DNA of 64,000 bases from a virus. Below are positions 561 through 60,715 of the stretch, piece by piece. The notes below the pieces were generated by a model. It had not been told where the DNA came from. It saw only the letters and a list, made by a program, of their open reading frames with translations, and ran no database searches. The position numbers were made by a program, and so were the translations under genes. The number at the start of each line of letters is the position of its first letter. Positions within the stretch are counted from its first letter, which is position 1. The stretch is from positions 10,021 through 74,020 of the IMG/VR virus record IMGVR_UViG_3300017748_000003. One strand, written 5' to 3'.

Positions 561-637
561 GTTAACGGTTCCATCTCAGGGAGGTTCAAAGCCCTCCCCT
601 TTAGATGTCGTTTTTGCACAACGGGCAAAAGCTTCTA

Positions 638-1006
638 TTAGCTAGAAGCTATCCCGTCATAAGACGTAGCACGAATGGAGGACTTAACGAACTCTTCGTT
701 CTCCTTTTCGACAGTAACCTCATCAACGTAGATGGGTCTTGCTGTAGAGCCACCGCCTGGTGTGAGATAAGTCCCACTAAGGCTAAGGGTAGTTCCAACA
801 GTTGCCGAAACCGTTCCAAGACCTTCGATAGAGATTTCAGAGGTAGGGTTGTAGTAAGCCACCGATACGATGACTCCACAGCTATCTCTAGCCTCTTTTT
901 TATCCATCTTATTAGTCATAGAAACGGACTGAGTTGTGAGGCTGGCCTCATCATCAGTAATTCCGAACTCTAGGGCTTGTCCTACTATTGTTCCGCAAGC
1001 TGGCAT
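638..1006 (-). CDS. putative tail tube / major tail protein
   Basis: 122 aa, Thr/Ser/Gly-rich, beta-strand pattern; follows connector, completion and terminator genes. Confidence 0.55.
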   Translation of the reverse strand: MPACGTIVGQALEFGITDDEASLTTQSVSMTNKMDKKEARDSCGVIVSVAYYNPTSEISIEGLGTVSATVGTTLSLSGTYLTPGGGSTARPIYVDEVTVEKENEEFVKSSIRATSYDGIASS

Positions 1007-1071
1007 AATTTATAATCAATTTGGGTTGCTAAAGAGTATCCCTCTTATAAGGAAATTAGTCAACGGCAAAA

Positions 1072-1632
1072 TTAACCTAATTCTTCTGGAAAGGAAGCAG
1101 AGCGTTCGCCTCTGCAATAATGCCGTGTATCCAGTGTAACTTCTAAAAAAGCTTCAAACGCTAACTGAGAAGGTGTTTCACTTTCCAAGGTCCTAAATGA
1201 TACAGGCTTTTCTAGGGTATTAAGAAGGCGGGAATCAGGCTCATCAAGACCATCAGTAGTAGTCTCGATAGCGTCACATATTAAAGCAATCCACTCAAGC
1301 AAACCTTTTTTACCCCCAGATTCGGGTGTCCTACGGAAAAAGAAGTCTTTTCTAGCGCAGTATAAACGAAACGTTAATGTTATAGAGGGTGCTATAGGGC
1401 TATTAGCCCTGCTACTTTGGCCGGAAACTTGGCCTGGGGATATATCTTCGATATGCTGCAAGGATCTAGGCTGTAGTGCTGGCATATCATCATACCCATC
1501 AACTTTTAACCTACCCTCCTTATCATAATTCAAACCATCAAGCATTCTTCCATTCTGAGAATGATAAATTAAACGCTCGTTAACAACCCAAGCAGGGGTA
1601 GTAAGCTGAAATGTATCTGTCTTAGCCATCAC
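1072..1632 (-). CDS. putative tail terminator
   Basis: Size and position between gp10-like gene and tail tube. Confidence 0.45.
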   Translation of the reverse strand: MMAKTDTFQLTTPAWVVNERLIYHSQNGRMLDGLNYDKEGRLKVDGYDDMPALQPRSLQHIEDISPGQVSGQSSRANSPIAPSITLTFRLYCARKDFFFRRTPESGGKKGLLEWIALICDAIETTTDGLDEPDSRLLNTLEKPVSFRTLESETPSQLAFEAFLEVTLDTRHYCRGERSASFPEELG

Positions 1633-2114
1633 CTCATTCTAGACGCAACGCTAGCATACACAAGCGAAGGGAATCGGGCAACCGCAAAGTCGCGGCCTTT
1701 CTTAGAGATATTAAGGGGTCGGATGCCTCTAACCTTATTAGCTAATACATAATCTCTGCCTCTTACAAAAGATTTGTTTTTAAGTGCTCTATACGCTCCA
1801 GCCCTGCCAGCGCGTATAGTTAGGGGTATAAATAATTTTTGCGCCCTAACTGGTCCATGAGCTTTAGTCCCTCCGTCTAAGAAGTGAATAGTTTTAGTTC
1901 TATTATATAACATATACTTAGACGGGCCTTGCTTTCTAATCTCCCAAGCAGCACGAGTCGCGCCCGTCCATCCTTTAGGGGTAAGATCTCGAACCTTATC
2001 CTTAGTAGCAAGAACAGCTTTCCTAACTCCTGGATCCATACCAGAAGCAGTTAGTGCAGAGGAAATTTTTCCTAACGCACGCATTGTAGCCCCAGAGGAA
2101 ACACTAACCCTCAT
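1629..2114 (-). CDS. HK97 gp10-like tail completion protein
   Basis: Basic 161 aa with TP..TG..R..W and FLDGGTKAH motifs; position. Confidence 0.6.
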   Translation of the reverse strand: MRVSVSSGATMRALGKISSALTASGMDPGVRKAVLATKDKVRDLTPKGWTGATRAAWEIRKQGPSKYMLYNRTKTIHFLDGGTKAHGPVRAQKLFIPLTIRAGRAGAYRALKNKSFVRGRDYVLANKVRGIRPLNISKKGRDFAVARFPSLVYASVASRMR

Positions 2115-2725
2115 AAAGCATAGTTAGACCATTGACGATACTTTTTAAGCAGCATCGTAGCTTCTGAGGGAACTGAGGTATCTAACATACTCGTAACTAC
2201 ACCATCAAGCCCTACTACTTGCTTATTATTTTCACCTGAGAAATTAGCAGCAATAAGGGTGCAAGCTCTTCTAATGGATTGAGGCAAAGTAGCTGGGGGA
2301 GTTTCGTTATCGGTAATAGGATAACCAAACGTGCCTTTTAGCTCCATATTAAGCACAAAAGGATGTTGTTCCCCGAATACACCACCCTCTGCACGTATTT
2401 GACTTCTCCCAACGTCAAAATAATACTCGTCAAAATCAAACTTATCGTTATCTACAGCACCTATTTCCCTATCAGAGTAAACCCAGAGGTCAGTAAGAGT
2501 AATAATAGGCCAAGGCAAGGTAACTATATTTTTAGTAACCCAAGACCTAGGAACTTCTAAGGCAGTAGAACTGTAATCGTGAAACCAGAAATCAGTTTGG
2601 CAATACTCTTCTACATAACGAGACGCTGTATTAATAGCGTTCTCGTAAAGAGAATCAGGCGCATCGCTATTTTGCGTTTCGCCGGATACGTCTGAGATAG
2701 AGCAGTATGGTCTTTCCAGAGCCAT
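2111..2725 (-). CDS. head-tail connector (gp6/gp15-like)
   Basis: Start reassigned to MALERPYCSISDV; ASRYVEEYC, GTFGY and LPQSIRRACTLIAA motifs. Confidence 0.7.
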   Translation of the reverse strand: MALERPYCSISDVSGETQNSDAPDSLYENAINTASRYVEEYCQTDFWFHDYSSTALEVPRSWVTKNIVTLPWPIITLTDLWVYSDREIGAVDNDKFDFDEYYFDVGRSQIRAEGGVFGEQHPFVLNMELKGTFGYPITDNETPPATLPQSIRRACTLIAANFSGENNKQVVGLDGVVTSMLDTSVPSEATMLLKKYRQWSNYAL

Positions 2726-2729
2726 TAGA

Positions 2730-2990
2730 TTACTTCTTAGGCGACTTAGCTTTAATGGTCTTAGCCTTAACGGTCTTAGCTTTAGTAGAACCACCTTTAG
2801 CTTCTTTAGTCTGAGCAGACTTAGATGCACCTCCAGCTTTACGCTGAAGTTTGTTAAGTAGATCAGAACGTTCTTTTTCAGACGCGCATTGATCAAACTG
2901 AGCGCATACAGTCTGAATCACGTTATCAGAGGCTCCTTGGGAAGCTAGAAGTCTCTCTATAGTAGCTTTAGTAGTAGGTTTAGTGCTCAT
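2730..2990 (-). CDS. small Lys-rich hypothetical protein
   Basis: ORF from MSTKPTT, in operon. Confidence 0.5.
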   Translation of the reverse strand: MSTKPTTKATIERLLASQGASDNVIQTVCAQFDQCASEKERSDLLNKLQRKAGGASKSAQTKEAKGGSTKAKTVKAKTIKAKSPKK

Positions 2991-3613: not shown

Positions 3614-3699
3614 TAAATCTAAAGGTAGCAGATATAATGCTACTAGACTTTGCGATTCAGTGCAAGTTTAAAATAAACACTAAGAATTGCACAGAGTGC

Positions 3700-3741
3700 A
3701 AAAAAACACCCCGCCTAGACTAACGAACTAGACGGGGTGTT
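3700..3741 (-). terminator. Rho-independent terminator after major capsid gene
   Basis: Minus strand AACACCCCGTCTAG-loop-CTAGGCGGGGTGTT followed by T-run. Confidence 0.8.
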
Positions 3742-6556: not shown

Positions 6557-6618
6557 GCTATTTACTGTAACCTCTGACAATATTATACGCAAGAAGTTTT
6601 GCACATCGTGCAAATTGA

Positions 6619-7600: not shown

Positions 7601-9850
7601 CTATATCAATTCTCTTCTTCTTGCCTCAGAAGGCCAGTAAGTCATGCCAGCCCTGCCGCCCCAAAGCTGTGCTGCGGCATAAGCAGGGCTACCTTTTGGT
7701 TCGTCTAAGAATCTTTTATTTCTTCCCCACCAGCGATTAGCTTTAGAAGTCCATTCATCAGTAGGCATACCGCCAGAGATAAAGTCCTTAGCCATCCTTA
7801 CAGTTATTGGCTCCAAGCCACCACCTGTTTCCCCATTCTCATGCCGCCTAATTCCATCTCTATAGGAGGCTATAGCTCCTTTTGGGGGTTTTCTGCGCTT
7901 AACAGCTTTTTCTTCTTCCTCGTCATCGTTGTAGCTGGATTTATCTTCCTCTTCCTCGTCATCGTAGCTATATTTATCCTCTTCCTCATCGTCGTAGTAA
8001 GAGTCTTCTTGTTCTTCTTGTCTTATGTAAGTCAAGTAAGCGTGAGGTTGATCGCTATGGGTTGCTCCCACCATAGGTCCTCCGTCTGGATGTATATGGT
8101 AATAACCTACATATTCCTCGCCCGTTCTTGTCAAGACTAACTCTCCACCTTCAGTATAAAGATTTTCTACCAATCCGGGAGGATTTTCACCATCGTGATA
8201 CCCTTTACTAGATAAAGGATGTCCTTTAGGAAGAAGGTCTGTGTCATGCTTGCCGCTCCTAAATCTACCGTTTCTTAAGACATATAAGAACGAGTTTACT
8301 CTAGCGTAAGCCCACTGATCTGGCGATGTAACGTTCGGTCTAACAGAGCCTGGATTTGTATTATAAGCACCAACACCCCGTTTAAATACCGCTATAAGCG
8401 TGCGTAGGTTAGTCCTCTTTGTTTTAGCGTTACCTACTTTTTCGTTATGATCCTTAACTTTCTTTTGTAGACCTTTACGAACTGCGGCACTTACATCTTT
8501 TTCTTGCTCCTCATCCTCTTCCTCATCGTCATCTTCGTCGTGATAACTCTTATCTTCTAAGGACTCAGAGATCTCATTATCGGTAGGGCTTGCTAACCCA
8601 GACATCTCAAGAGGGATAACTTGAAAATTCACAGTAAATATATCCATAAGAGGATCATCTACCAACTCAAGATGCGCCCGTTCTCTAACCTCATTACGGG
8701 TCATAATACCCCTATCAACCAAAGGACCAAAATCTTTAGAGATCTGCTCCATGTCCACAAGACCATCAAAGTCATAGGACAGCATAAGGTTTGCGTTTTT
8801 AGCAGAAATAAAACCATCGTTATTCAGCTTAGTAACGATAACGTCAATGAGTGGAACGATAGTGTAACGTCTAAAATTAACTTCCTCTTGCCTAGATGTA
8901 GCATAATTCTGAGCATTCTTAAGCCCAAAGACAGAAAGAGGAACACCGTGATTAAGAATAATCTGCTCAGTAGTCCACCTCTCTTTTTCCAGTGCTTGCA
9001 TCTCAGCCATAGTCATGCCGAGCTTAATGTAATTCCAATCACCGTTAAGAAAGGCCGTCTTTCCGGCGTTTTCTTTACCACCGTAGTCAGCTTCCCACTT
9101 AGACTTAAGTGCCTCCCACTGATCTTGATCCTCGATAGAATCTTTTCTGTGTAAGATACCAGAGGGCTGAGCACCTTGACTAAGAAACTTTTCGTTAAGG
9201 GTATCCTTGTTAATAAAATCGTTAAAAACGGCTTCAGATCCTTCTACGTCTCCAAGACCCATGCACAAGTCGTTAGGGTGCGTGCGCTTAAAGTGTATAA
9301 TCTCTTTAGCATCAAAAATAATTTCTTGCCCATTAACTCTGTAAATATAAGAAGATATTTTCTGCTTACGGTCTGGGACAGGTTCGATGTGCTGAGGCAG
9401 TAATGGATAAAGTGCGGTAGGTCTACCTACCAAATCAACTTCATCTTTAAGCCAATAAGCGTTTCCTGTAAGCCCAAGATGCCAACAGGTAAGAGCCATT
9501 ACATCTGTCCAAGTATCGTAAGGGTTAGGCTCCGTAAGAAAGCCTCCCTCAGAAAAATTACCAGCACCAGAAACCCTGCTACCGTTCTTATTAGGATCAA
9601 CTACTTTAAATCTAGCTGATATAACACGAGATTCTATCAGCCTCATACACCTAAAAGTAACCCATACTCTTTTGCATCCAGCGTCTAAGTAAGACTGATA
9701 GTCAGTAAACTTATGAATAGGTATACCTAAAGCGCGTTCAATATAGTCACGCTCTTTAGTAGATACAAGAAACCGCGACATCATCGCAACGTCTGACGGA
9801 GATGCGTTCTCCGTCCTAAAAGATTTATTTCGCTTAAGGAACCCTAGCAT
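7601..9850 (-). CDS. HK97-family portal protein with ~320-aa multi-module C-terminal extension
   Basis: LGLTGNAYW, EIIHFK, GAQPSGIL, ENAGKT, GVPLS, GIMTRNEVRE motifs. Confidence 0.9.
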   Translation of the reverse strand: MLGFLKRNKSFRTENASPSDVAMMSRFLVSTKERDYIERALGIPIHKFTDYQSYLDAGCKRVWVTFRCMRLIESRVISARFKVVDPNKNGSRVSGAGNFSEGGFLTEPNPYDTWTDVMALTCWHLGLTGNAYWLKDEVDLVGRPTALYPLLPQHIEPVPDRKQKISSYIYRVNGQEIIFDAKEIIHFKRTHPNDLCMGLGDVEGSEAVFNDFINKDTLNEKFLSQGAQPSGILHRKDSIEDQDQWEALKSKWEADYGGKENAGKTAFLNGDWNYIKLGMTMAEMQALEKERWTTEQIILNHGVPLSVFGLKNAQNYATSRQEEVNFRRYTIVPLIDVIVTKLNNDGFISAKNANLMLSYDFDGLVDMEQISKDFGPLVDRGIMTRNEVRERAHLELVDDPLMDIFTVNFQVIPLEMSGLASPTDNEISESLEDKSYHDEDDDEEEDEEQEKDVSAAVRKGLQKKVKDHNEKVGNAKTKRTNLRTLIAVFKRGVGAYNTNPGSVRPNVTSPDQWAYARVNSFLYVLRNGRFRSGKHDTDLLPKGHPLSSKGYHDGENPPGLVENLYTEGGELVLTRTGEEYVGYYHIHPDGGPMVGATHSDQPHAYLTYIRQEEQEDSYYDDEEEDKYSYDDEEEEDKSSYNDDEEEEKAVKRRKPPKGAIASYRDGIRRHENGETGGGLEPITVRMAKDFISGGMPTDEWTSKANRWWGRNKRFLDEPKGSPAYAAAQLWGGRAGMTYWPSEARRRELI

Positions 9851-10641: not shown

Positions 10642-10673
10642 AACAAGTAAAGTATTTGCACGAAGTGCGAATG

Positions 10674-13076: not shown

Positions 13077-13098
13077 TACCTTAATTTTGCACGGCGTG

Positions 13099-13935
13099 CT
13101 ATTTATGGCAAGGCCATACACACTCCTCTGGGCGTTTATCTTCACGCCACCTAATCTGACTATCCACTCCACGCACCGCATTAGGATGTCGCATAGATCC
13201 AGAGTCAAATATATGCCAGCCTTTCACCTCCAGCACCCTACCCTTAAACTCGTCAAAATTCTCAAATATATACCTCCCCTCAATATCAGTAAACCCCCCG
13301 CCAACCTTTACCTTACTCACAAGCTCCCCTTCTTCGTAAAGGCCGCACAGCAGATTACCCACCATTCCCTTACGCCTACCCCCACCTTCATTCACCCCCA
13401 TAACAACGTAGTCCATCGTAAACACCTGCTTACGCCTCCACACCGTAGAGCCTATGTAAGCCTCCTTACTGTTCTTCCAGACCAAACCCTCTGCATCCCC
13501 ATTCTCCACGTATTCGTCCCACAGAGCTTCGGAACGATCAGCAGGGTAATGCTCAGCCATCTTAAGAAAAGAGCAGCCGGAAATACATTTCTCAGCCATC
13601 ATCTTCCTATCCACGCAACTATTCAAATACACATCCTGACATCCTACAGAAATACAATCAAACACCTTAACCACTCCGGTATCTCCGTCTGCCCCTTCAA
13701 CCGCTCTCTGAGTCCCAACCAGATACTCTCCGATATACACTCCATCCAAAGCCTTAACCTCTTTCTCAGCTTTCAACTGACCTTGACGAGAAAAAACCTG
13801 AGCAACCCCACTTCTAACCACAACCCTAGCCCACCACCCATCATACTTAATCTCTACAATGTCAGCACCCCTAGCAACAGCAGTCTCGTGGTCCTCCACA
13901 TTCACATACTTTTGAATCCTCTTTGTAAAATCCAT
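13099..13935 (-). CDS. lig: ATP-dependent DNA ligase (minimal)
   Basis: EIKYDG adenylation motif, GEY, VFD, EGLVWK, OB-fold VGGGF and RHP..R.DK. Confidence 0.9.
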   Translation of the reverse strand: MDFTKRIQKYVNVEDHETAVARGADIVEIKYDGWWARVVVRSGVAQVFSRQGQLKAEKEVKALDGVYIGEYLVGTQRAVEGADGDTGVVKVFDCISVGCQDVYLNSCVDRKMMAEKCISGCSFLKMAEHYPADRSEALWDEYVENGDAEGLVWKNSKEAYIGSTVWRRKQVFTMDYVVMGVNEGGGRRKGMVGNLLCGLYEEGELVSKVKVGGGFTDIEGRYIFENFDEFKGRVLEVKGWHIFDSGSMRHPNAVRGVDSQIRWREDKRPEECVWPCHK

Positions 13936-14405: not shown

Positions 14406-14433
14406 ACTATAGCACAGAATAGAATATTTGCAA
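14406..14433 (-). promoter_or_regulatory. sigma70-type promoter TTGCAA-N16-TATAGT
   Basis: Member of ~20-copy promoter family. Confidence 0.8.
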
Positions 14434-14988
14434 GCAAAAAACATATAACTATCCAAATTTATTATTGCACGAACGTGCAAACTGTCGTTAAGGCAACCCA
14501 CAAATGACAAGGGGGAAACCCAGCGGAATGGAAGAGGGTATAGGCGAGCGTAGCGAAGCCGACGCGCGACACACTACTCACCCAATAACCTTCCACGATA
14601 CCCCACACAGACCAGACCACGCCGACAATCAATTAAAACAATACCCAAATCTTTATTCGCTATCTATAACCCTGTTTGTTTGCAATACTATAAAAAACCA
14701 ACATAAATACCCCACGGGACAAACTCTGTTCAGAGCCGGGGGGCACCAGGGAATTTAACCCCCCACCCCCCTCTGTTGAGGACGGGCTACACTAAGAGAG
14801 TAAAGCCCTACGCCAACCCTCCAAAGCTACGACAAGGAGCCTACCACCTCACGGTGTTATCACCAGCGCACTACGGGCAGAACCGTAAGAGTGTGTAAGC
14901 GGACGCAAAGAGACCCTCTAACCTACGAGAAGCAAGAGGGTCTACTCTGTTGTGTTAATACTGTGTAGCGGGGCTAAGGCCCACCGCG

Positions 14989-15640: not shown

Positions 15641-15668
15641 AGTATAGCTCACCCACGAACATTTGCAA
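15641..15668 (-). promoter_or_regulatory. promoter TTGCAA-N16-TATACT
   Basis: Repeated family. Confidence 0.8.
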
Positions 15669-15711
15669 GCAATAAATGCATATTTTTTTTAACTTTCTTT
15701 GCACGGCGTGC

Positions 15712-15738
15712 AAAAGGGAGGACCGCTAAGCCCTCCCT
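15712..15738 (-). terminator. Rho-independent terminator
   Basis: AGGGAGGGC-loop-GTCCTCCCT then T-run. Confidence 0.65.
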
Positions 15739-17158: not shown

Positions 17159-17186
17159 AGTATAGCTCAGGAATGATTCTTTGCAA
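17159..17186 (-). promoter_or_regulatory. promoter TTGCAA-N16-TATACT
   Basis: Repeated family. Confidence 0.8.
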
Positions 17187-17394
17187 GTAAATAATGCATA
17201 TTTTTTTGCACGACCGGCAAAATGGGCAAAAACCTTCATTTCGCCCCTAATCCATCCTAAAGCTTTTCAAGGGTCCCCACAGCGGAGAGGGTCCCGGACG
17301 CGCCTACGGCCCTCCTGTGGCCCGTTTCTATGTCAGCATTAATGTAGGCATTTTCATACGCTAGCGTTGCGTCCCAGTAACAAGTCACCCCCAT

Positions 17395-17422: not shown

Positions 17423-18180
17423 ACTTTTATTTTGGCGCGATCGCGGCGGTCAATCTAGACTAATCTGCCGCTCGGGTCTCCAATTAGGTCGGCCCCATTT
17501 ATCGGTGCGCGTTAGTCCCGGTTAGGTTGCGCCGCTTAGCTTGGCCTTAGTCCGTGGCCTTAGTCGGCGGTTAGGTTGTGGCCTAAACATTTGCACGGTC
17601 GGGCAAACGGTTGGTGCGGCGGTAAGACGGAGGCTAGTGTTGTGAGTTGTCTTATCGGTAAAGCAGACAGTCAGCTTAGTGTGTTAGCCGAGGTAGAGTT
17701 AGTGTGTTGTCGGAGCGTAGAGTTGGCTGTTGTTTTCTTTAGCGGTGCATATCTTATGCTCGGTCTTGCACGAACGTGCATCTTCGACTTGGCTAAATCC
17801 TTTGTATCAACGACTTACATAATCCTTCAATTATCTCTTATATTCTGTCTTGTCTTATGTCTTGTATGGGGTTTTAAGTTGTCCCTGCCGCAGACCTAAT
17901 CCTTAGTATTACTCTTCCTCTAAAGGGGAAACCTTGTCCTTATACCTGCCGCAAATCTGTTAAGTTATCTCTTAGATTATCCTAAATCTAAATCCTTCAC
18001 GCAAAGGTAAACCGCAATCGTTAAGTAAATCCTAAGATATTTAAGTTACATATTGACTTGGGTATTAGTGTTACCACAGGCTTGCCGCAAAGCTAAGCTC
18101 TCTTGCCGCACCTAACGCGCCGTAATACATAAGCAGGGATTACCACGGCGGATTATATGATCGGCGCGTCTAAAGCGATC
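17423..18180. other. long non-coding region with short repeats (candidate genome terminus / pac / origin)
   Basis: No credible ORF; TGCCGCA repeats at 17886, 17947, 18083, 18104; IHF-consensus TATCAACGACTTA at 17805-17817. Confidence 0.45.
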
Positions 18181-18393: not shown

Positions 18394-18429
18394 TATGTTG
18401 TTGGATTCTCGGTTTGCACGGTGTGCGAA

Positions 18430-19178: not shown

Positions 19179-19235
19179 ACTATAGCTCAAGAATGATTAT
19201 TTGCAAGCAATAAATATCTAAAAGTTAAACTTTTT
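19179..19235 (-). repeat. promoter cassette repeat copy A
   Basis: ~50 bp near-identical to 19600-19653 (ATAGCTCARGAATGATTATTTGCAAGCAATAAATATCTAAAAGTTAAACTTTTT). Confidence 0.85.
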
Positions 19236-19251
19236 GAACGGTGTGCAAATA

Positions 19252-23823: not shown

Positions 23824-23878
23824 AATACGTAAGGTTACATTTGCACGAATGGCAAACCATCAACGCTAAGATCTTTGC

Positions 23879-24493
23879 TTAGCTATCATCCTCAGCATTA
23901 GCCACAGATCTAGCTTTAGCTACAATCTCTCTAAACTCTTCTATGGTAAATACATTCTCCTCAAGACAATGTGGGCAAAGAAGATCGATCACCGTATCTT
24001 CTGTTTCTCCGTCAGAACCTTGAGAGGACCCAGGCGTGGGGACTTGCTGATCGAGCGGCTCCTCACCTTCGTCAGTATCATCTTGTGCATCGTTAAAAGA
24101 GCTTAGATCCATAATGTCTTTCCACTCCTCCGATTGAAAGAATCCAGCAATATTCTCCATTGACCCAGCACCGAGATCCTCAAGCTCTTTTTCAAGAGTA
24201 TCCATGTCCCACTCAGTAAACTCTCCAGCCTTATTGTCTGCGATCCGAAACTGCCTAGCCTTCTCTTCATCTAGTTCAACTTGGACAATCCTTACCTTCT
24301 CGTATCCAAGCTGAACCAAGGCCCTATACCTAGCGTGACCAGCCAAAATAACTCCGTCTTGGTCAACTACGATAGGCACTGTGTAGCCATATTTCTGTAT
24401 AGAGTCCTTAAGAGCGGCTACCGTATCATCGTTTTTCCTTGGATTACGCCAGTAAGGTCGGATGTCATTAATGCTAACTTCTACAATGTTCAT
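23879..24493 (-). CDS. ParB/Srx N-terminal-domain protein 1, C-terminal CPHC knuckle
   Basis: IRPY.RNPRKN, SIQKYGY..PIVVD, AGHARY.A, FRIADNK. Confidence 0.85.
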   Translation of the reverse strand: MNIVEVSINDIRPYWRNPRKNDDTVAALKDSIQKYGYTVPIVVDQDGVILAGHARYRALVQLGYEKVRIVQVELDEEKARQFRIADNKAGEFTEWDMDTLEKELEDLGAGSMENIAGFFQSEEWKDIMDLSSFNDAQDDTDEGEEPLDQQVPTPGSSQGSDGETEDTVIDLLCPHCLEENVFTIEEFREIVAKARSVANAEDDS

Positions 24494-24538
24494 TGAATGG
24501 TGGGGTAATGTTTTAGAATTAGTGATCGTTATATGCAT

Positions 24539-25105
24539 TTAATCGCCAAGTCTTGAATCAACGTAAAATTTTTCTGAACAATGACCGCACTTAATCTCTA
24601 CCATGCGTGAATGAGCCTCTTCATCTCTGTTCTTATAATGATTCTCGTTAGCCTCAAGCTTCTTATCAATCTGTTCTTGCGTGGGAGCTATCGCAGAGGC
24701 TCCAGCCTCATCTAACGACCCCATAATATTCTCTAACTCACTTTCATCATACCAATCAGCCATTTCTCCGGCTGCTGCTACTGCACGAAGTTCATCCTTG
24801 AGAAGATCGTGATCCCATACAGACATCTCAGAGATTCTATTATCAATAATACGGAACTCTCTGGCTTGCTCTTCTGTAAGATCTGACGCTACTAAAACCG
24901 TAACTTTTTCCCACTTAAGTTCCTTTATAGCTAACAACCTTGTGTGGCCTGTAAGGACTACGTTGTTTTCGTCAACCACTATTGGCACGTTGTATCCAAA
25001 CCGTTCGATAGATTTCTTTACGGCATTAATAGCGTCAGCAGAAGCCTTACGGGGATTCTTTTCGTAAGGCTTAATGTCAGTTATAGGTAAAACTTTTTTA
25101 TTCAT
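24539..25105 (-). CDS. ParB/Srx N-terminal-domain protein 2, C-terminal CGHC knuckle
   Basis: IKPYEKNPRK, SIERFGY..PIVVD, GHTRL.A, FRIIDNR. Confidence 0.85.
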   Translation of the reverse strand: MNKKVLPITDIKPYEKNPRKASADAINAVKKSIERFGYNVPIVVDENNVVLTGHTRLLAIKELKWEKVTVLVASDLTEEQAREFRIIDNRISEMSVWDHDLLKDELRAVAAAGEMADWYDESELENIMGSLDEAGASAIAPTQEQIDKKLEANENHYKNRDEEAHSRMVEIKCGHCSEKFYVDSRLGD

Positions 25106-25941
25106 TCTATAATTAATTGTTGGTGATTTTTCTGGTGAAATTCGTGAGCGGCCTGAGTCAGTGCTGAATCCCCAACGTGGAAGTCAACCCCCTTCATGGT
25201 CTTCATCATCACGTCCCACCCATCCTTGGCCCCCTTCGGCGGTTCGGCAGGAACTATATACTCCTCTGGGAGCCTGACAAGCGTAGTGTTACCAGTCATC
25301 TTTGCCCACATTCGGAACATCGCTTTCCCGTCAACGTGCTGAATGGCATGGACAGCACAGACCTTGTTGTAGTGGTAGTTAATCCCTCCGGCGAGGTAGG
25401 CGTGCAGGGAGTAGCTCAGGTCATCCCAGCAGAAGTTCCTGCCTTCGTGGAGCTTCATCATTCGCTTCGCGCTCGCCCTCGACATCATCATCCCGCCGCG
25501 CAGGTGAAGCATCACTTTCTTCTCGATGGTTGGCTTGTCCTTGCGGACGAACTCCTTCACGCGATTGACCGTGTTCTTGCTCTCAACCGTCACGACCCCA
25601 GTATCATGCCGCATCGCCAGAGGCTCGGCTAAGATGTAGGGCTTCGTCTCTTCGATGAAATACATATCATCGTCTGCAAAGCAGATGAGATCGTAGCCTT
25701 CCTGCAACGCTAGATTCAGACCAGCGAACCGTGCGCCTACCATCCCGATCATGTCCGGGAAGCTAAGCACCGACCTAACCTTCGGGAATGGGGAAAGCTG
25801 TTTTTCGGTCGGATGGAATCCCTGCGGCACGAGGATAATGTCCCATCCCCTAAGAGGCTGGTGCTCTTCCTCAGTCTTGAGGAAACGCCAGATCATCTCC
25901 TCTCGATGATGTACGCAGGGAACTATAACGGCTCTTCTCAT
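25102..25941 (-). CDS. GT-A fold glycosyltransferase-like protein
   Basis: VIVP strand, FADDD metal motif, WDDLSY; visibly GC-richer than flanks. Confidence 0.6.
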   Translation of the reverse strand: MRRAVIVPCVHHREEMIWRFLKTEEEHQPLRGWDIILVPQGFHPTEKQLSPFPKVRSVLSFPDMIGMVGARFAGLNLALQEGYDLICFADDDMYFIEETKPYILAEPLAMRHDTGVVTVESKNTVNRVKEFVRKDKPTIEKKVMLHLRGGMMMSRASAKRMMKLHEGRNFCWDDLSYSLHAYLAGGINYHYNKVCAVHAIQHVDGKAMFRMWAKMTGNTTLVRLPEEYIVPAEPPKGAKDGWDVMMKTMKGVDFHVGDSALTQAAHEFHQKNHQQLIIE

Positions 25942-26621
25942 ACGGTCATCTCTTCTTCCGGGTGCTCCTCTTTATATTTCTTTTTAGCCAAAAGCTGATT
26001 TTTCATTTCCCACGCTTTCTTATACTCTACGTCCTCAAATAGCTTACTAAATCCTGTAACGTGCTTAAGCCTTACAAGTTCGTCAGCCTCCATGCCAAGC
26101 TCAGCGCAAATCTCAGCATCAGACCAGCCATTATCTAACATCTCCAACACCATATTACCCATACCAGCCACCGAATGCTTACCCCGTGCGCGGTTATGCC
26201 TAACAGTAGATGCCATGCGATCATTAATCTGCTTGTCTAGGACAACGATAGGGAGGAAGCCCTTGCACCACTTCTTAATATCAGCGTTCATACGCATTGT
26301 GGTAAATCTGTGAAAGCCGTCAATGATAACATACTTATCTTTAGCCTCATCATAGATAGTAACCACAGGCTGAGTATAGCCGTCATGCTTAATCGAAGTG
26401 TATAGAAGCCCCATCTCAGTTTTAGCTACGGAGTTAGGGTTATAGTCATTCGCCTCAACTTGCTCTACAGGGACCCATCGTATATTGGCAATAGGTTGTT
26501 CTGAGAGAGGGCTACGATCAAAAATCCATTGAGAGATTTCTTGCTGCCTGTCTATCTTCTCTCTAGCGTTATCGCAGTCTGAGAAGAGGGACTCCAAGGT
26601 AGATTGCTGTTCTTTAGTCAT
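25938..26621 (-). CDS. ibrB: IbrB-like ParB/Srx protein
   Basis: ANDYNPNSVA..EM.LL..SI..DGYTQPVV, IDGFHR, RMASTVRHNRARGKH. Confidence 0.9.
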   Translation of the reverse strand: MTKEQQSTLESLFSDCDNAREKIDRQQEISQWIFDRSPLSEQPIANIRWVPVEQVEANDYNPNSVAKTEMGLLYTSIKHDGYTQPVVTIYDEAKDKYVIIDGFHRFTTMRMNADIKKWCKGFLPIVVLDKQINDRMASTVRHNRARGKHSVAGMGNMVLEMLDNGWSDAEICAELGMEADELVRLKHVTGFSKLFEDVEYKKAWEMKNQLLAKKKYKEEHPEEEMTV

Positions 26622-26681
26622 TAGTCTTTATACTCAATTACAGTTTTTGGTAAATTATCTAAGAGATAAAAGCTACACCAC

Positions 26682-31185: not shown

Positions 31186-31328
31186 GGATTAATATATCAC
31201 AGATCCGAATATTTGCAAGTAATAAATACCTAGTGTTTTTGCACGCTGTGCAAACTAAAGACAGAGACTAGGAGTCTTTAACGTCTTTTGCATCAGATAA
31301 CTTTTCGCAAAGCATAACTAATCGTTCG

Positions 31329-36955: not shown

Positions 36956-37199
36956 AAATAAGTAAAATATAGTCTTTTCTAAAAATATTAGGCATAAGGA
37001 CACGGCCAGCCTCAGGCATCCTAAGCATAAACGTAAGCAACTCCCCTCTTAGAGATCTATAAGCTACGCGATCAGCCTTAACCCTTTTACCGGATACATG
37101 AGTCCCCATTTCAATAGCTATTTGCACGGCGTGCAATCCTGACCTAGCCACGATGTAACTAATCTTCCAATAACGGCTAACTACTCGGTATAGATTCAT
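36942..37199 (-). CDS. hypothetical protein
   Basis: 85-aa ORF. Confidence 0.5.
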   Translation of the reverse strand: MNLYRVVSRYWKISYIVARSGLHAVQIAIEMGTHVSGKRVKADRVAYRSLRGELLTFMLRMPEAGRVLMPNIFRKDYILLIYEDD

Positions 37200-40319: not shown

Positions 40320-40451
40320 ATTGTATTGTTGGTAGTGTTTATTAAGTGGTAGCCGGAACACCCAGCATTCACGAGAAAGACTATAGCACAGCGCGGGAAT
40401 GTTTGCAAGCACTTTTTTACTTACAGTCAAACAATTTGCACGAATTGCAAA

Positions 40452-40874
40452 TCATCTTCTTGTTCTTTTAGCCTTAGCCAGCGTTACTCCTTTGCGTTGG
40501 AGCCTCTCTGCTTTACTCTTTCTGTCGTGACAGTTCTTGCAGAGAGCTTGGAAACCTTCAACCTCTACAAACATCCTTTCAATGTAAGTATCCCAATCAA
40601 CAAAACCTGTATTAGGATCTACCACTGGCTTAATATGATCTGCTCTCATCTCGCTCTGAGGGAACAAATCATCGCACATAGAACACTTATGAAGTTTACA
40701 CATTCTACCCGTTTTAGGGTTAGGGCCTCTGCTAACAAAAGCTCTCTTAATGCATAAATACTTAGGACCCCATCTAGTTGAAGCATTACGGATAGCAGAC
40801 GTAATGAAGCTACGAAACCGCGCCTCAGTCCACTGATTTGTATTCCTAGTTTTTGGGCCTCCTAATGGCATCAC
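40452..40874 (-). CDS. HNH endonuclease
   Basis: CSMC..ADHIKPV..QALCKNCHDRKS. Confidence 0.85.
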   Translation of the reverse strand: MMPLGGPKTRNTNQWTEARFRSFITSAIRNASTRWGPKYLCIKRAFVSRGPNPKTGRMCKLHKCSMCDDLFPQSEMRADHIKPVVDPNTGFVDWDTYIERMFVEVEGFQALCKNCHDRKSKAERLQRKGVTLAKAKRTRR

Positions 40875-42132: not shown

Positions 42133-42678
42133 TTAAAACGGGCAGTTAGAATCTGTATCAGACCCCCAATCAATATCAGATAAAGTTGACTGATCTATCC
42201 AATCATCCTCCTCTGGGCTTTCACTAGAAGGGAGACCTATGCCTATTTCATGCAGCATAACCCAACGGCCATCACCTAACTGAATTTTTTTCTCGTAACA
42301 CCCTTTTCTAGAGTTTTCGGAGGCAGTAATAACTCTTACGTTTTCTACCGAATAACCTAACCTAGCGTTAATTCTATCTATATGTAACTGCTCGGCTCCA
42401 CGACCCTTTGCATCAAGGTATCCACTAGCTTCAGCTATAGCCATAAATTCATCGTAGGTAAGACTAAACGATATATTTTTCCTAGAAGCGCGGGACTTAA
42501 CCTGATGATAAGAGTTACGTCCAGGATTCCTAACTCTCCAAACACGCTGCTTGCATTTAGAGCAAAGCTTACGGTGCTTAAGATGCGGGTTTCTACAGTG
42601 CTTTACAGCGCAAAGCCTACCTTTATCGTGCTCAACCAGAGTAACAATATCTTCAAGAGGAATGTCAATCTCAGCCAT
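42133..42678 (-). CDS. HNH-like endonuclease with N-terminal Cys knuckle
   Basis: HIDRIN...GYS.ENV......N..K. Confidence 0.65.
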   Translation of the reverse strand: MAEIDIPLEDIVTLVEHDKGRLCAVKHCRNPHLKHRKLCSKCKQRVWRVRNPGRNSYHQVKSRASRKNISFSLTYDEFMAIAEASGYLDAKGRGAEQLHIDRINARLGYSVENVRVITASENSRKGCYEKKIQLGDGRWVMLHEIGIGLPSSESPEEDDWIDQSTLSDIDWGSDTDSNCPF

Positions 42679-43869: not shown

Positions 43870-43902
43870 AAATGTAACTGTGTTCTTTGCACGGTGTGCG
43901 AA

Positions 43903-44205
43903 TCAATTTTCCGCTCCTTCCATAGCTTTATCGTATTCTTCGTCTAAGTATTTCTCCACCAGAGCGGAAGCTCTTTCCTTAGCCTCGTCATAATCCTTGT
44001 CGGTTACACCGCACGGAACTACAACATTAACGTGAACTTTCACAAAATCGAACTCGCTTACTTTCTTAGTAAGCCCACCTCCGACTTCTACTGATCCTAA
44101 TTCGCCCTCAGTCTCTTTGCCCGTCACTTCAAAGCTAACAGGACTTGTCCCCGTTGTAGCTTCTCCATGCTTGACAGACCTTCTTGATCTCTTTGCTGTT
44201 GTCAT
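43903..44205 (-). CDS. hypothetical protein
   Basis: 100-aa ORF. Confidence 0.55.
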   Translation of the reverse strand: MTTAKRSRRSVKHGEATTGTSPVSFEVTGKETEGELGSVEVGGGLTKKVSEFDFVKVHVNVVVPCGVTDKDYDEAKERASALVEKYLDEEYDKAMEGAEN

Positions 44206-44759
44206 TATTTATTAAGCTCGGTCATCTTCTCATGTAATTCTATGATAACCAAATTATCGGTTGCCCTAAAAGCCGAACGTCCTGCAAGACCATCCCTAAG
44301 AACTCTAGCTAATCCATCAGCCTCCTTAACAGTAAAAACTCTCTGGCCTTCTACAGTAGAACGTGTAGGTCTTGGAAATTTGTTAGACTCAATCCAACCA
44401 GACAATACTTTAGGAACAATACCTATAACCTCTGCCATCTTGTCTATAGTAAGAACCTTCTTAGATCTAGTAGAGCTACCTATCTTCATCTTCCTAGTAA
44501 CCGTAAAGGCCGCAGCGTTACCTGCGTGACCCCCAAATCCTTTAGCTTCAAAGCTACCTGTAGAATCTCTGTAAGATTTACGAGAACGCTTAATACACTT
44601 GCGCCGATACTCTGCATCTTTCTCGTAACGCTCTCGCCTAACTTTAAGATATTTCTTCTGATATTCCTTATTACGCTTCCTACGAGCCTCATCAGCTTCT
44701 TCTTGTGTAGCGTATTTTCTTGGCCTACCGGGACCCGCCTGTTTGTTACTTGCACTCAT
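44205..44759 (-). CDS. DNA-binding protein: AT-hook plus MerR/AlpA-like HTH
   Basis: GRPRK; LTIDKMAEVIGI....LSGW....KFPRP...RVFT. Confidence 0.65.
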   Translation of the reverse strand: MSASNKQAGPGRPRKYATQEEADEARRKRNKEYQKKYLKVRRERYEKDAEYRRKCIKRSRKSYRDSTGSFEAKGFGGHAGNAAAFTVTRKMKIGSSTRSKKVLTIDKMAEVIGIVPKVLSGWIESNKFPRPTRSTVEGQRVFTVKEADGLARVLRDGLAGRSAFRATDNLVIIELHEKMTELNK

Positions 44760-46147: not shown

Positions 46148-46192
46148 AACAACCACCCCCTAATATAATTTGCACACAGTGCGAATCAGACC

Positions 46193-48990: not shown

Positions 48991-49059
48991 AGATTTAGTA
49001 TAGCACAGAAACAGAATGTTTGCAAGCAATTTTTCGGAAAGATTTGCACGAAGTGCAAA

Positions 49060-53904: not shown

Positions 53905-55090
53905 CAATCCAATCATCAAACGTGCCGCCTCCTGACTTTAACTTAGACTTAGGTTTTGCACGCTGTGCAATTCTTCCTTCCTTACGCATTTGATCTCGCA
54001 AGACTTTAATCTTCTCTCTTTCAAGCCTAAGCTCTTTAAGCTTATCGGCATAACCAAACTCCTCAGCCACTATCTGCTTCGCCTTCTCTGGGTCCATGCC
54101 CTTCTCACGAAGCTCTTCAGCACGCCGCTCAAGCTCATTCATCTTAGCAAGCCTATCCCACCGCTCTTCGTTAGCGTAAGCGACCTCAAAGATCCTTCTT
54201 AGCTTTACACTAACTATCATCTCTGCCACCGGAAAACGAGGAGCATCATTCATCCACCCTAACGATGTAGATCTTATAAGAAGCCAATTCTGAAATAAGA
54301 ACTCAAGGTAAGACATAAACTCTCCTTCATCTCTATTCTTAGTCCAAGCCTTTGCGTAACGGACCATAATAGATCTAACACATGACGATAAGGGCGCGGG
54401 AGCCTCTTTAGGAAAATGCTCAATAAACAACCCCTTCCAAAGTATAACGAATGCGCCGTTCGTGGGAACAAACCCAGAATCTCCACGAACCCTAACACCT
54501 TTCTCTGCCGCAGCTTTACGCTTAGACTTAGATCTCTTACGAACTTCTTCAATCCTAGTCTTGTAACGAGAAGAGGCATCAACTTCCACCTCGGACGCTT
54601 TAGCGTCCACGCTATTACTATTTTGTCTCTCTTCCCTTTTGCTGCTCTTCCTTATGACAGGGCCGGTTTCGTCCCCCTCGATAGATACACTTTCGTCCCC
54701 GTCGATAGATACACTTTCGTCCCCCTCTTCTCGTAATCTTTTAGGCATCTTCATACGATTAAGCTCATATACTTTAGAGCGGTCAGTGCATAACCTAGAA
54801 TCCCTACATAGGAGGTAACCTTTATCAACAAGCGAATTAAGTATGTCACCTGCTCTCCTAACATTAGACGCAAAAGGCGAAGCGATGCATTGGCCCTTAT
54901 CATCCCATATACCCTCCACGCATTGACGGCGACTAATCCTCTCTTCGCGCTTTCCCCAGCCCAGAGTTCGATCAAATACAAATAGTAGTGCAAGCCTTTC
55001 AAGCGATGTGCAGTCTCGGAACCAGACCCTAAGTATAGTGCGATGAACTTCCCATACGAATTTCCAATCACGGTATTCATTCTTAGCCAT
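53897..55090 (-). CDS. replication initiator (lambda O-like N-terminal wHTH) containing iterons
   Basis: RTLGWGK.EERIS, L.SLVDKG; internal 24-bp repeats. Confidence 0.7.
   Translation of the reverse strand: MAKNEYRDWKFVWEVHRTILRVWFRDCTSLERLALLFVFDRTLGWGKREERISRRQCVEGIWDDKGQCIASPFASNVRRAGDILNSLVDKGYLLCRDSRLCTDRSKVYELNRMKMPKRLREEGDESVSIDGDESVSIEGDETGPVIRKSSKREERQNSNSVDAKASEVEVDASSRYKTRIEEVRKRSKSKRKAAAEKGVRVRGDSGFVPTNGAFVILWKGLFIEHFPKEAPAPLSSCVRSIMVRYAKAWTKNRDEGEFMSYLEFLFQNWLLIRSTSLGWMNDAPRFPVAEMIVSVKLRRIFEVAYANEERWDRLAKMNELERRAEELREKGMDPEKAKQIVAEEFGYADKLKELRLEREKIKVLRDQMRKEGRIAQRAKPKSKLKSGGGTFDDWIDE
54667..54727. repeat. 24-bp tandem repeats (2.5 copies), putative iterons
   Basis: TTTCGTCCCC(C/G)TCGATAGATACAC at 54667 and 54691, partial copy at 54715. 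Confidence 0.8.
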
Positions 55091-55231
55091 TAATATTTGA
55101 CAGGCTTTGCACAGTGTGCGAATATCATGCTATTCAGTTGTATTGCTGTGTGACTCGTGTTCTGCCTGCCCACCTTGGATTCACAATCTCCTCGGTGGGC
55201 AGGTCTGTTTGAACACCTCACACTAAAAGTT

Positions 55232-57084: not shown

Positions 57085-57111
57085 AATTATTAGTATTGCA
57101 CGGTGTGCAAA

Positions 57112-58758: not shown

Positions 58759-58846
58759 ACAATGGTTGGGCCTCTACTATGCCCGTTATTAGCTTAGCAC
58801 AAATACGAATCTTTGCAAGCTAAAAATACAAAGTTTTTACTGTAAC

Positions 58847-59077: not shown

Positions 59078-59188
59078 ACTACACGTTAGCACCTATCCGA
59101 ATCTTTGCAAGCAATAAATAAAAATGTTTTCTCTAAAACTTAAGTTTTCACCTCAGTGAAAATAGGCTATACACGAAAACACTAACTT

Positions 59189-59686
59189 TTACTTATCGCC
59201 TAGCGTAGATACCTGCTGCTCTAGCAGTCTTAAACGATCATCAAACTGATCAGACTTATCAACGTTATCTTTTAGGTCCTGAGAAATAACATTAATACCG
59301 GACATAACATTCTCATACTGTCCGTCAAACCTAACAGCGAGTTTATCGTCTCCAGAGTTCATAGCCCATATCCCCACTCCTCCAGCGGCTCCAGTAACGG
59401 TAATACCGATACTAACCATCGCTAACAAAGTAGATAAGGCTAACCCAATACCCCAAGTAACATATTTAGTAGCTATATGATCCTTAGATGCTGCAACTTG
59501 GCTAGTGCTAGTAATGACTTGATCCATCTTAGTAAAGAGGATATTCATATCAGAGCGCATACCCTCGACAGAGCTAGTAGTTTTAGCCACCTCAGTCTTA
59601 AGCTCACCTACGTCTACTTCGACGCGATCCATTCTGCGTCCAAGTTGTGCCGTAGTCATATTAGTATCGCTTCTTGCAGTAGGCAT
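59189..59686 (-). CDS. membrane protein with coiled coils (lysis-associated?)
   Basis: Coiled coil, TM segment, coiled coil; follows endolysin. Confidence 0.55.
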   Translation of the reverse strand: MPTARSDTNMTTAQLGRRMDRVEVDVGELKTEVAKTTSSVEGMRSDMNILFTKMDQVITSTSQVAASKDHIATKYVTWGIGLALSTLLAMVSIGITVTGAAGGVGIWAMNSGDDKLAVRFDGQYENVMSGINVISQDLKDNVDKSDQFDDRLRLLEQQVSTLGDK

Positions 59687-59740
59687 ATCAGTCTGAAGTT
59701 GTTCTGTCGCCCTTCAGATTTTTAGTAATAATATGCCATT

Positions 59741-60625
59741 TTATCTACTATCTGCAAGCGAGACTGTAATCTCAGGAGCAGAAGTTACACCTTTTTTAAA
59801 ATTAGGTCTACTATACGCATCTCCAAAGAGATTAACATACCCCACAAGGCTAGCTTCACTTTCTCGTCTAATAGAGTGCTTAAAGCGATTTCCCACGTTA
59901 CCCTCAAGCGCATTAAACCTAGAACCATCATGGTCTACACGAACTACAGCAGCGGCATGACCTGCTCCAGCCAAACGACCACTGCTTTTTAGGCCACCCT
60001 TATAGTTATAAATAGCAATATCACCAGGCATAGGCTCATAATCCAGCTTAGGAAATGAGCAATCACGAACGACTGCTTCATTCCAAAAAGTAGAGCAATG
60101 AACGTGCATAGCCCCCAAAGGTGCGCTATTAAAGGTTTCTTTCCAAGCGTAGCTAAGTGCCGCTAAGCACCAATAAATGCCGTAAGAGAACCCGCATGAA
60201 TTGCATATAAGGGTAACATCACCTCCGTAATTAGATCCATCAGGAATTTCCTTAATACCATCCTTGTGCATCTTATAGAGAGTAGACACGAACCTCATTC
60301 GCTTATCGCTCTCAACTACAGCAGTCTCTTCGGTAGGTATAAAATTACGCTGAGCACTACCGTTAGGATTATGTAAAGCCCACCACGTATTAGGTCCCAC
60401 AGCACCATCAACTGCAAGAAACTCACCGTCTTTACCAATGTGAGTATTCTGAAAATACCTAACGGCCTCTTCAGTAAGACTAAAAAAATTTCCGAGAGGA
60501 GTCCCTTTAAAATACCCTTCTCTCTGAAGTATAGTCTGAACTAATTTAACGTCTGCGCCACGACAGCCACGCCGCATAACCCTACCTAGTTTAGTAGGCT
60601 CTACATATTGTCGGACTTGGCTCAT
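59741..60625 (-). CDS. endolysin: peptidoglycan-binding domain + CHAP domain
   Basis: G..G.DV..VQ..L, T..AV..FQ, VDG.VGP.TW; YWC, PGDI, GH, EGN. Confidence 0.85.
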   Translation of the reverse strand: MSQVRQYVEPTKLGRVMRRGCRGADVKLVQTILQREGYFKGTPLGNFFSLTEEAVRYFQNTHIGKDGEFLAVDGAVGPNTWWALHNPNGSAQRNFIPTEETAVVESDKRMRFVSTLYKMHKDGIKEIPDGSNYGGDVTLICNSCGFSYGIYWCLAALSYAWKETFNSAPLGAMHVHCSTFWNEAVVRDCSFPKLDYEPMPGDIAIYNYKGGLKSSGRLAGAGHAAAVVRVDHDGSRFNALEGNVGNRFKHSIRRESEASLVGYVNLFGDAYSRPNFKKGVTSAPEITVSLADSR

Positions 60626-60642
60626 ACTAACGGAACCTTTAA

Positions 60643-60692
60643 CTTAGCAAAACCCCCCCAACTCCTTATAAGAGTATAGGGGTAATGCTAAG
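60643..60692 (-). terminator. long hairpin / terminator between holin and endolysin
   Basis: CTTAGCATTACCCC...GGGGTTTTGCTAAG. Confidence 0.55.
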
Positions 60693-60715
60693 AGATTATT
60701 TGCACGAAGGGCAAA

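Follow-up and report, generated by a model that had tools for sequence, protein, structure and literature searches.

A lineage-specific palindrome dispersed along the gene boundaries of an uncultured phage: a putative operator and its candidate reader

Why would an apparently lytic phage repeat one short palindrome along its whole genome, mostly in the narrow gaps between genes? The question is raised by a 64,000-nucleotide (nt) stretch of DNA from an uncultured phage (the window; bases 10021–74020 of a 74,020-bp IMG/VR record rated 84% complete, here genome G000). All of its long open reading frames (ORFs) lie on the minus strand, so that in gene sense the window is read from 64000 down to 1; every site, promoter and gene given below in window coordinates is on this strand. 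The palindrome, TTGCAC-N3-GTGCAA, was the subject of an original prediction, made from the letters alone, that 24 polar copies mark the genome for a single protein. The feature is real, it is conserved, and it clearly has a function; elements of this kind are known, though their mechanism is not explained, and this one comes with a concrete candidate reader. We favor, with about even confidence, the reading that the palindrome is an operator, a docking site in double-stranded DNA for a two-fold symmetric, phage-encoded protein tied to transcription by the RNA polymerase of the host, the best candidate being a MerR-type protein of 184 amino acids (aa).

Is the palindrome more frequent than chance would allow? 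With up to two mismatches, TTGCAC-N3-GTGCAA has 22 matches in the window, against 1.68 ± 1.16 expected (100 shuffles, maximum 5), an excess that the prediction had made its first check; one of the 22, at 42551, looks like chance. Each of the 24 coordinates listed beforehand holds the element or a one-base-longer variant: 21 fit the pattern within two mismatches, those at 14465 (14465–14480) and 17766 (TGCACG-TT-CGTGCA at 17767–17780) are 7+2+7 variants, TTGCACG-TT-CGTGCAA in gene sense, and that at 17591 (17591–17606) is a weaker variant with a four-base spacer. Two more copies in the first 10 kb of the record, outside the window, bring the total for the 74-kb genome to 26. In gene sense the consensus reads (a)T-T(T/c)GC(A/c)C-NN(C/t)-GTGCAA-A. 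Of the 26 copies, 25 keep the 3′ half exactly; the 5′ half is degenerate, and its variants break complementarity instead of keeping it. With every gene on the minus strand, this 3′ half is the plus-strand left half that had been described, rightly, as almost invariant. The further claim, that all copies share one orientation, holds for the imperfect sites, in which the exact half lies on the common side 14 times and on the other side once, but it does not extend to the sole copy of reversed polarity (TTGCACACCGTTCAA, 19234–19248) or to the eight copies that are perfectly symmetric. Isolated half-sites are depleted in G000 only, not in its relatives, and are not used as evidence here.

Where do the copies lie? 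Intergenic DNA holds 22 of the 26, though it makes up only 7.7% of the genome; the remaining four are inside genes, 33–134 nt ahead of the gene end. Thirteen sites start at most 9 nt past a stop codon, six of them at exactly 1 nt. All nine gene ends at which the prediction had seen a site abutting a stop were confirmed. The gap is 1 nt after the genes ending at 60716 (site at 60700–60714), 57112 (a perfect palindrome at 57096–57110, after the gene of a 548-aa ATPase), 49060 (perfect, 49044–49058, after polA), 43903 (43887–43901, 17 nt ahead of the RecA-like gene), 40452 (40436–40450) and 18430 (18414–18428, 20 nt ahead of the next ATG); it is 3 nt after those ending at 19252 (the reversed copy) and 10674 (10656–10670, within the 17-bp spacer of a TTGACA/TACTTT promoter-like pair), and 5 nt after the gene ending at 6619 (perfect, 6599–6613). 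One copy does overlap a stop, as had been noted: the TAGCAC half of the palindrome at 13087–13101 provides the TAG of the upstream gene. Three copies had been placed inside ORFs; two of these are in real genes, at 26715–26729 (33 nt ahead of the stop of the PAPS-reductase-like gene) and 53956–53970 (perfect, 59 nt ahead of the stop of a 397-aa gene), but the third, a perfect palindrome at 37122–37136, sits in a 204-nt gap and is within an ORF only if a doubtful one of 85 aa is counted. Other copies are found between a ParB_N gene and the unannotated gene just upstream of the large terminase (TerL) gene (23841–23855), upstream of the helicase gene, which overlaps the gene of the 184-aa protein in a probable operon (46170–46184), and 16 nt ahead of the 397-aa gene (55107–55121). 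Four sites lie directly 3′ of a separate terminator-like hairpin; such a hairpin precedes the palindrome at 614–628 (TTGCCCGTTGTGCAA) and, with a T-run, the perfect one that follows the major-capsid gene (3687–3701), while a perfect palindrome at 15699–15713 is flanked by a hairpin of this type and a promoter. The higher density reported at 13–19 kb is real and coincides with a block of small genes rich in promoters.

Every G000 site, the four in gene 3′ ends included, is upstream of a gene start. Where there is no promoter, the layout is compact: a stop codon, 0–8 nt, the palindrome, an A/C-rich leader of 0–25 nt without a Shine–Dalgarno word and an ATG, in gaps of ~27–36 nt. The palindrome stands hard against the stop codon because the rest of the gap must hold the ribosome-landing region.

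Is the element peculiar to this phage? An alignment of TerL led to 80 loci in IMG/VR, many with a similar palindrome, and eight near-complete genomes were fetched; three further contigs (L137, L139 and L140) were reached with the neighboring helicase as the anchor. Twelve motif-bearing uncultured genomes and contigs, from habitats that range from marine to human gut, were assembled in this way, and the GC content of G000 and the eight fetched relatives spans 41% to 63%. Conservation in relatives, the other check that had been proposed, is evident: each relative examined carries its own symmetric version, and the eight fetched genomes hold 13–36 copies each. The versions (seen in G001–G005, G007, G009, G010, L137 and L139) are TTGCAA-N3-TTGCAA in G001, TTGACCG-T-CGGTCAA in G002 (19 of 22 perfect), TTGCAAC-t-GTTGCAA in G003 (33 sites), TTGCAm-N3-kTGCAA in G004 (18–34 sites), TTGAAC-N3-GTTCAA in G005, TTGCACG-N2-CGTGCAA in G007, TTGCAcGATCtTGCAA in G009 and CTGCAAC-N2-GTTGCAG in G010. 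L137, a TARA contig, and L139, a human-gut contig (OGTL01000081.1, 89.6 kb), belong to the same phage family. L139 is a distant member with the same order of replication genes; its sites read TTGCAA-N3-TTGCAA followed by ATTTTTTTC, and at five of the six sites that the fetched stretch contains, a TTGCAA box lies 29–30 nt further on.

These comparisons indicate what is being read. Both half-sites are replaced together between lineages, and all copies in a genome share one sequence; therefore the sequence is read, not just the shape. The symmetry runs through the center of the element, as 7+1+7 in G002 and G003, as 7+2+7 in G007 and G010 and around a GATC core in G009. The central positions could not pair in a hairpin, whose loop would be 0–2 nt; their symmetry is better accounted for by a protein dimer bound to duplex DNA. 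A T precedes the element in 78% and an A follows it in 81% of 172 sites across genomes, and no other base is conserved within 60 nt on either side; with no flanking box at any fixed distance, the element is not a two-part promoter but a self-contained palindrome of 15–19 bp, uniform within a genome. As a rule it is the 3′ half that is better conserved, by roughly 57 to 14 in our own tally of six genomes; this polarity is strong in G000, G003 (15:0) and G005 (7:1), whereas in G001, G002 and G009 it is weak. Single sites are gained and lost between genomes, yet the one directly after the polA stop is present in all six genomes examined, with a different sequence in each and followed each time by a promoter-like −35 box. 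In G001, G002 and G003, a quarter to a third of all copies are intragenic, among them perfect copies inside polA (G002 and G003) and inside the helicase gene (G001). Given that every relative examined carries its own version, a DNA-binding protein made by the phage most likely docks at the palindrome, and the pattern of symmetry leads us to favor recognition as double-stranded DNA by a symmetric dimer. That one protein reads all sites, as originally proposed, is the most likely arrangement, since copies within one genome are alike, and those of related genomes differ in a symmetric way.

What ties the palindrome to transcription? The genome contains ~19 nearly identical σ70-type promoters (14406–59110) in which a −35 box, attattgcTTGCAA or TTGCAA, is followed after 16–17 bp by TATACT, often with an upstream TG (TG-n-TATACT). 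In this family the start codon is 5–9 nt past the −10 box, so many genes look leaderless or nearly so. Seven to nine G000 sites lie upstream of its members. The site after polA, for example, has its center 26 bp ahead of the −35 box of TTGCAA-N17-TATACT (48997–49025), with the ATG 6 nt past the −10 box. The site at 40436 is centered 35 bp upstream of the promoter at 40380–40408, the perfect palindrome at 31239–31253 28 bp upstream of that at 31191–31218, the reversed copy 35 bp upstream of that at 19179–19206, a copy with two mismatches in its 5′ half (17206–17220) 27 bp upstream of that at 17159–17186, the perfect palindrome at 15699 38 bp upstream of that at 15641–15668 and the variant at 14465 ~39 bp upstream of that at 14406–14433. 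Of 24 G000 sites, 7 are followed within 75 nt by a promoter-like sequence, and so are 6 of 15 sites of G005; the background rate is 3–4%.

The distances are not spread evenly. Among 32 sites from five genomes, with −35 contexts specific to each lineage, the center of the palindrome is 15–18 bp (12 sites), 23–29 bp (12) or 33–40 bp (8) from the −35 box, and five sites of L139 fall at 37–38 bp. The Rayleigh statistic is larger for a 10-bp period (R = 0.59, p ~2e-5) than for periods of 7, 8, 12 and 13 bp (0.21–0.42); its value is inflated because promoter cassettes are duplicated within genomes and the data are not independent. As the spacings are one helical turn apart, palindrome centers near −52, −62 and −72 tend to share one face of the helix. 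The prediction had allowed that only a subset of sites is near promoters; this understated the link, which takes in about a quarter to a third of the sites and shows in the helically repeating spacings.

Several other readings of the sequence next to promoters were tried and rejected. A σ54 promoter was discarded by inspection: the plus-strand TTGCACG resembles TGGCACG, but there is no GG, the spacing is 2 bp short and the match is on the antisense strand. No −10 box stands at a fixed distance from a half-site used as the −35 box of a sense or antisense σ70 promoter. A MerR-style operator in the promoter spacer would place the palindrome between −35-like and −10-like boxes, where only 2 of 172 sites are found. 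Chi-like or motor-orienting polar words are excluded by the confinement of the sites to gene boundaries. In G002 (loci L092–L096, for example at gene-sense 31446–31500), a second repeated palindrome, aatCCTTGCAAAGGtt, wraps the promoter −35 box in 11 copies and may be the site of another regulator.

If the palindrome is an operator, how might it act? At the promoter-linked copies, the bound protein would touch or compete with RNA polymerase and tune the promoter, by activation or by repression. At the copies placed between a stop codon and a ribosome-landing region, it may dampen or insulate read-through, or simply organize the DNA. The stronger, promoter-proximal half-site would make the complex directional relative to transcription. 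An ambitious extension can be imagined, in which one MerR-type protein and ~25 direction-marked palindromes organize transcription of the whole genome: the protein would set promoter output from a fixed helical face and act as a one-way insulator at cistron boundaries, since sense polymerase would meet the weak half first and pass, while antisense or head-on traffic would meet the strong half first and be stopped, and, in hosts from the sea to the human gut, protein and site would have evolved in step toward six or more specificities. We regard this extension as a long shot.

Which protein could read the sites? The helix-turn-helix protein encoded at 44205–44759, in the replication and recombination block, had been named as a candidate binder, and of the three binders proposed it is the one that has gained ground. 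Homologs of this 184-aa protein are present in 8 of 8 fetched relatives and, immediately 3′ of the helicase gene, in L137, L139 and L140, which makes 12 of 12 motif-bearing genomes and contigs checked; none is found in G012 (complete) or G013 (85% complete), whose TerL-flanking loci lack the palindrome, or in 25 other helicase-homolog loci of at least 9 kb that are without the motif. A profile search matches it to CarA (2jml, E = 1.3e-4) and CarH (E = 0.01) through their MerR-type DNA-binding domains, the Pfam MerR_1 match is below the cut-off (E = 0.03), and its Atlas neighbors are viral clusters of MerR-type helix-turn-helix proteins. Folding from the single sequence gave a model that is not usable (a predicted local distance difference test score, pLDDT, of 52); the alignment-based AlphaFold2 (AF2) model that was used instead (pLDDT 87) consists of a basic N-terminal tail (GRPRK), a helical hairpin (residues 19–66), a β-hairpin and a helix-turn-helix with a wing (105–142). 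Profile, model and weak fold matches thus agree on a winged helix-turn-helix of the MerR type, but the order of domains is reversed: canonical MerR proteins have an N-terminal helix-turn-helix, a long dimerization helix and an operator in the promoter spacer, and here the winged helix is C-terminal. The residues of the recognition helix just before an invariant Trp differ among genomes with different half-sites. An Arg beside this conserved Trp goes with TTGCAA-type sites; it may reflect a single evolutionary event and is not counted as evidence. The second proposed binder, encoded at 19657, has no helix-turn-helix in Pfam or PHROGs and a homolog in one relative only, and it was dropped; the third, ParB/IbrB, is taken up below.

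Several observations weigh against an operator read by this protein. About two thirds of the sites have no recognizable promoter nearby and are followed by a start codon at 0–25 nt; therefore, contact with a promoter-bound polymerase cannot explain them. With TTGCAA and a TG-extended −10, the promoters look strong as they are, and 12 of ~19 are without a site, so an activator is not obviously needed, and the non-independence of the promoter cassettes takes something from the phasing. Three- and four-base spacers coexist in G000 and in G007, which a hairpin loop tolerates more easily than a rigid dimer. The best Foldseek matches of the AF2 model, to CueR, CarH, BldC, RacA and MtaN, have weak E-values (0.03–0.1). 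Finally, the whole replication gene block shares the same phyletic pattern, so that the co-occurrence is confounded by ancestry and the 184-aa protein is a candidate, not a result.

Could the sites serve the DNA itself and have no part in transcription? They might organize or anchor the chromosome, in the manner of ParB at parS, mark it for recombination-dependent replication or direct strand-specific nicks, and their intergenic position would then merely be where a 15-bp word costs nothing. The gene of the candidate binder does lie between the helicase gene and genes for RecA-like, endonuclease, resolvase and exonuclease proteins, HNH endonuclease genes are present, and the intragenic copies in G001, G002 and G003 sit easily with such a role. 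RacA, a MerR-type winged-helix protein that binds many dispersed palindromes (ram sites), is among the fold matches. But a role of this kind leaves unexplained the association with promoters, the helical-turn spacing, and the site and promoter kept after polA in six genomes, and we consider it unlikely, if worth keeping in mind for the two thirds of sites that have no promoter.

Alternatively, the protein might simply stand in the way. A boundary-bound phage protein that halts host RNA polymerase would split the genome into units or shut genes off, much as stoperators, a documented mechanism (PMC9283540), are thought of in the original analogy. Sites at gene boundaries with one polarity, several of them between a terminator-like hairpin and the next promoter, are what a roadblock would look like, and a MerR-family phage protein, D29 Gp36, lowers expression downstream of its site (PMC12266134). 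However, the perfect copies inside polA and the helicase gene must be transcribed, in the same block as the presumed binder, and they argue against a strong block to elongation; a full block would also cut off the genes behind promoter-less sites. The site is palindromic, not asymmetric. Nor is there a lysogenic state to silence, because no tyrosine or serine integrase (Phage_integrase and Resolvase domains) was found in G000 or in the complete G002, G003 and G004, in searches to which the controls responded. A stoperator-like roadblock is, on this balance, improbable.

Does the element act as RNA, or as single-stranded DNA, instead? A 6-bp hairpin could be a processing site, a stabilizer, a pause or anti-termination signal or an N4-type hairpin promoter. 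The orientation with respect to transcription, the invariant 3′ arm, loops of three and four bases in one genome, a post-stop position that resembles intercistronic processing sites and predicted folding energies of −2.4 to −7.1 kcal/mol all speak for a structure of this sort. Yet within genomes, changes in the 5′ arm disrupt pairing, and no compensating change ever accompanies them: G000 variants such as UCGCAC and UUGCCC leave stems of only 4–5 bp, at −2.4 to −3.8 kcal/mol. Symmetry is kept at the central positions, which cannot pair; no U-run follows the element, an A standing there instead; no Rfam family matches in the window; and a search of the genome and the complete relatives for a T7-type RNA polymerase domain, run without a positive control, was negative. 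Perfect copies in polA and the helicase gene would be harmful there as terminators or RNA cleavage sites, since they would cut or terminate an essential mRNA. The chance that the palindrome works as a hairpin is accordingly small.

Perhaps, then, each copy is a promoter, the start for a short-leader gene recognized by an unfamiliar phage RNA polymerase or σ-like factor? Every G000 site is upstream of a gene start, the leaders of 0–25 nt have no Shine–Dalgarno words, and the phage already uses leaderless starts at σ70-type promoters. Such words, however, precede only ~20% of the called genes in G000, G001, G002, G003 and G005; because they are rare before all genes and not just those preceded by the motif, their lack after the palindrome is nothing special to the element. 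(Low Shine–Dalgarno use combined with canonical −35/−10 promoters suggests hosts with Shine–Dalgarno-independent translation.) No σ70 region 4 was found in the genome or the complete relatives, the T7-type polymerase search was equally negative within the limit given above, and no protein of polymerase size is left unexplained. The site is symmetric and has no conserved start region or −10 box, unlike known promoters, and some start codons abut the motif, so that a fixed transcription start would fall inside it. Taken together, a promoter role is very improbable.

The weakest proposal, that the palindromes are parS-like loading sites for ParB-domain/IbrB proteins of a DNA-modification operon, draws on the three ParB_N proteins that adjoin the PAPS-reductase-like gene and on the habit of ParB-family proteins of binding palindromes of similar size, but it has next to no chance of being right, because Pfam ParB_N is absent from the complete G003 (33 sites) and G004 (18–34 sites) and sub-threshold in G001 and G010, all of them rich in sites, and because by BLASTP the three window proteins have no homolog in G001 and one weak homolog (30% identity) in G003.

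What kind of phage carries this operator-like palindrome? The window genome encodes a polA-type DNA polymerase, a DnaB-like helicase and a second helicase, a primase and a RecA-like protein, a Holliday-junction resolvase, an exonuclease and two HNH endonucleases, a portal, a major capsid protein, a large terminase and a PAPS-reductase-like protein. The three ParB_N-domain genes and the PAPS-reductase-like gene (23879–27884) adjoin the terminase genes, just upstream of them; this block is common to G002 and G005 and absent or barely detectable in G001, G003 and G004. The two HNH/endonuclease VII-like genes (40452–40874 and 42133–42678) are within the recombination gene block and would be candidates should the DNA prove to bear site-specific nicks. 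The portal protein (7601–9850), at 749 aa, is longer than those of relatives (433–481 aa) by a C-terminal extension of ~270 aa. TerL homologs also vary in length, some being far longer than others (832 aa in G002), and the intein domain PF14890 of Pfam was found in the homologs P0031, P0068 and P0100. Cultured phages are distant: a nucleotide search with 24 kb of the window gave no match to any, the best cultured relative by polA is Aeromonas phage HJ05 (46% identity), from which the palindrome is absent, and no cultured relative of TerL exceeds 31% identity. Among uncultured homologs, an exact-peptide search of IMG/VR with polA found no match, and the closest by identity are at 94% and 79% for TerL and at 84% (a 74.5-kb contig) for the 184-aa protein.

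How does the palindrome compare with what is known? Dispersed gene-boundary palindromes are known in few phage groups, and the roles of most are not understood. Related genomes with the same architecture but different half-sites and spacers are an unusually clean natural experiment, and a single conserved candidate reader together with a simple promoter spacing rule lets binding and reporter tests be designed directly. If the protein–site pair were confirmed, the family would offer a set of orthogonal regulator–operator pairs and would show how one-strand phages with few terminators separate their transcription units.

Activator sites of class I, of the CRP type, are two-fold symmetric and stand upstream of σ70 promoters. 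The palindrome shares the symmetry, and its centers at about −52, −62 and −72 follow the helical repeat (n = 32 plus L139, data that are not independent). It differs in that its factor is phage-specific and probably of the MerR type, that the promoters look strong unaided and that most sites have no downstream promoter to serve, only a quarter to a third being within 75 nt of one.

Among phage elements, the promoter-early stem-loop (PeSL) cassettes of T4-type phages join stem-loops that are effective terminators to promoters (PMC2839356). Here, too, an inverted repeat and a strong σ70-type promoter are repeated before the small genes of a variable region (13–19 kb). Unlike the PeSL stem-loop, the palindrome is followed by A and not by a T-run, so it is no intrinsic terminator joined to an early promoter, and it stands alone at about two thirds of its sites, in all gene modules and with a lineage-specific sequence. 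As for the protein, the lytic phage D29 modulates early as well as late genes through Gp36, a MerR-family repressor that binds GC-rich direct repeats; dozens of dispersed sites were not reported for it (PMC12266134). The candidate described here is likewise a small MerR-type DNA-binding protein, but in it a basic tail and a helical hairpin precede the winged helix, which is C-terminal, and its putative targets are palindromes in ~26 places.

The original prediction had pointed to the stoperators of cluster A mycobacteriophages, an analogy that has also been drawn for the oriented intergenic repeats of T1-like phages (PMC11447400). Stoperators (L5, Bxb1, TipsytheTRex) are asymmetric sites of 13–14 bp read by the monomeric two-domain immunity repressor of temperate phages (PMC9283540, PMC6550527). 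The analogy is apt for the layout: dozens of sites in short intergenic regions at gene boundaries (22 of 26), in a single orientation relative to transcription (14:1 in G000, 15:0 in G003, 7:1 in G005). It fails for family membership, given a palindrome of 15–19 bp (perfect in 8 of 26 copies in G000 and 19 of 22 in G002), no integrase in the genomes searched and copies within essential genes such as polA.

The nearest published description is the 7-N3-7 repeat of Cluster O mycobacteriophages, a 17-bp dyad, TGTTCGG-N3-CCGAACA, with 34 copies, many in short intergenic gaps and some intragenic; a dimeric regulator was suggested as its binder, its function is not known, and alongside it stand SigA-type promoters whose mRNAs are leaderless (PMC4351075). 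In Corndog, a member of this cluster, both halves are invariant, orientation has no meaning and few repeats are near promoters, and a transcriptional role was thought unlikely (PMC4351075). Like that repeat, the window element is an inverted repeat with a 3-bp spacer, found in tens of copies genome-wide with an intergenic bias and with leaderless promoters alongside, which places it among such dispersed dyads, a descriptive class without a known mechanism. It differs from the Cluster O repeat in being unrelated in sequence and host, polar, linked to promoters at helical spacings and lineage-specific across a wide family of phages.

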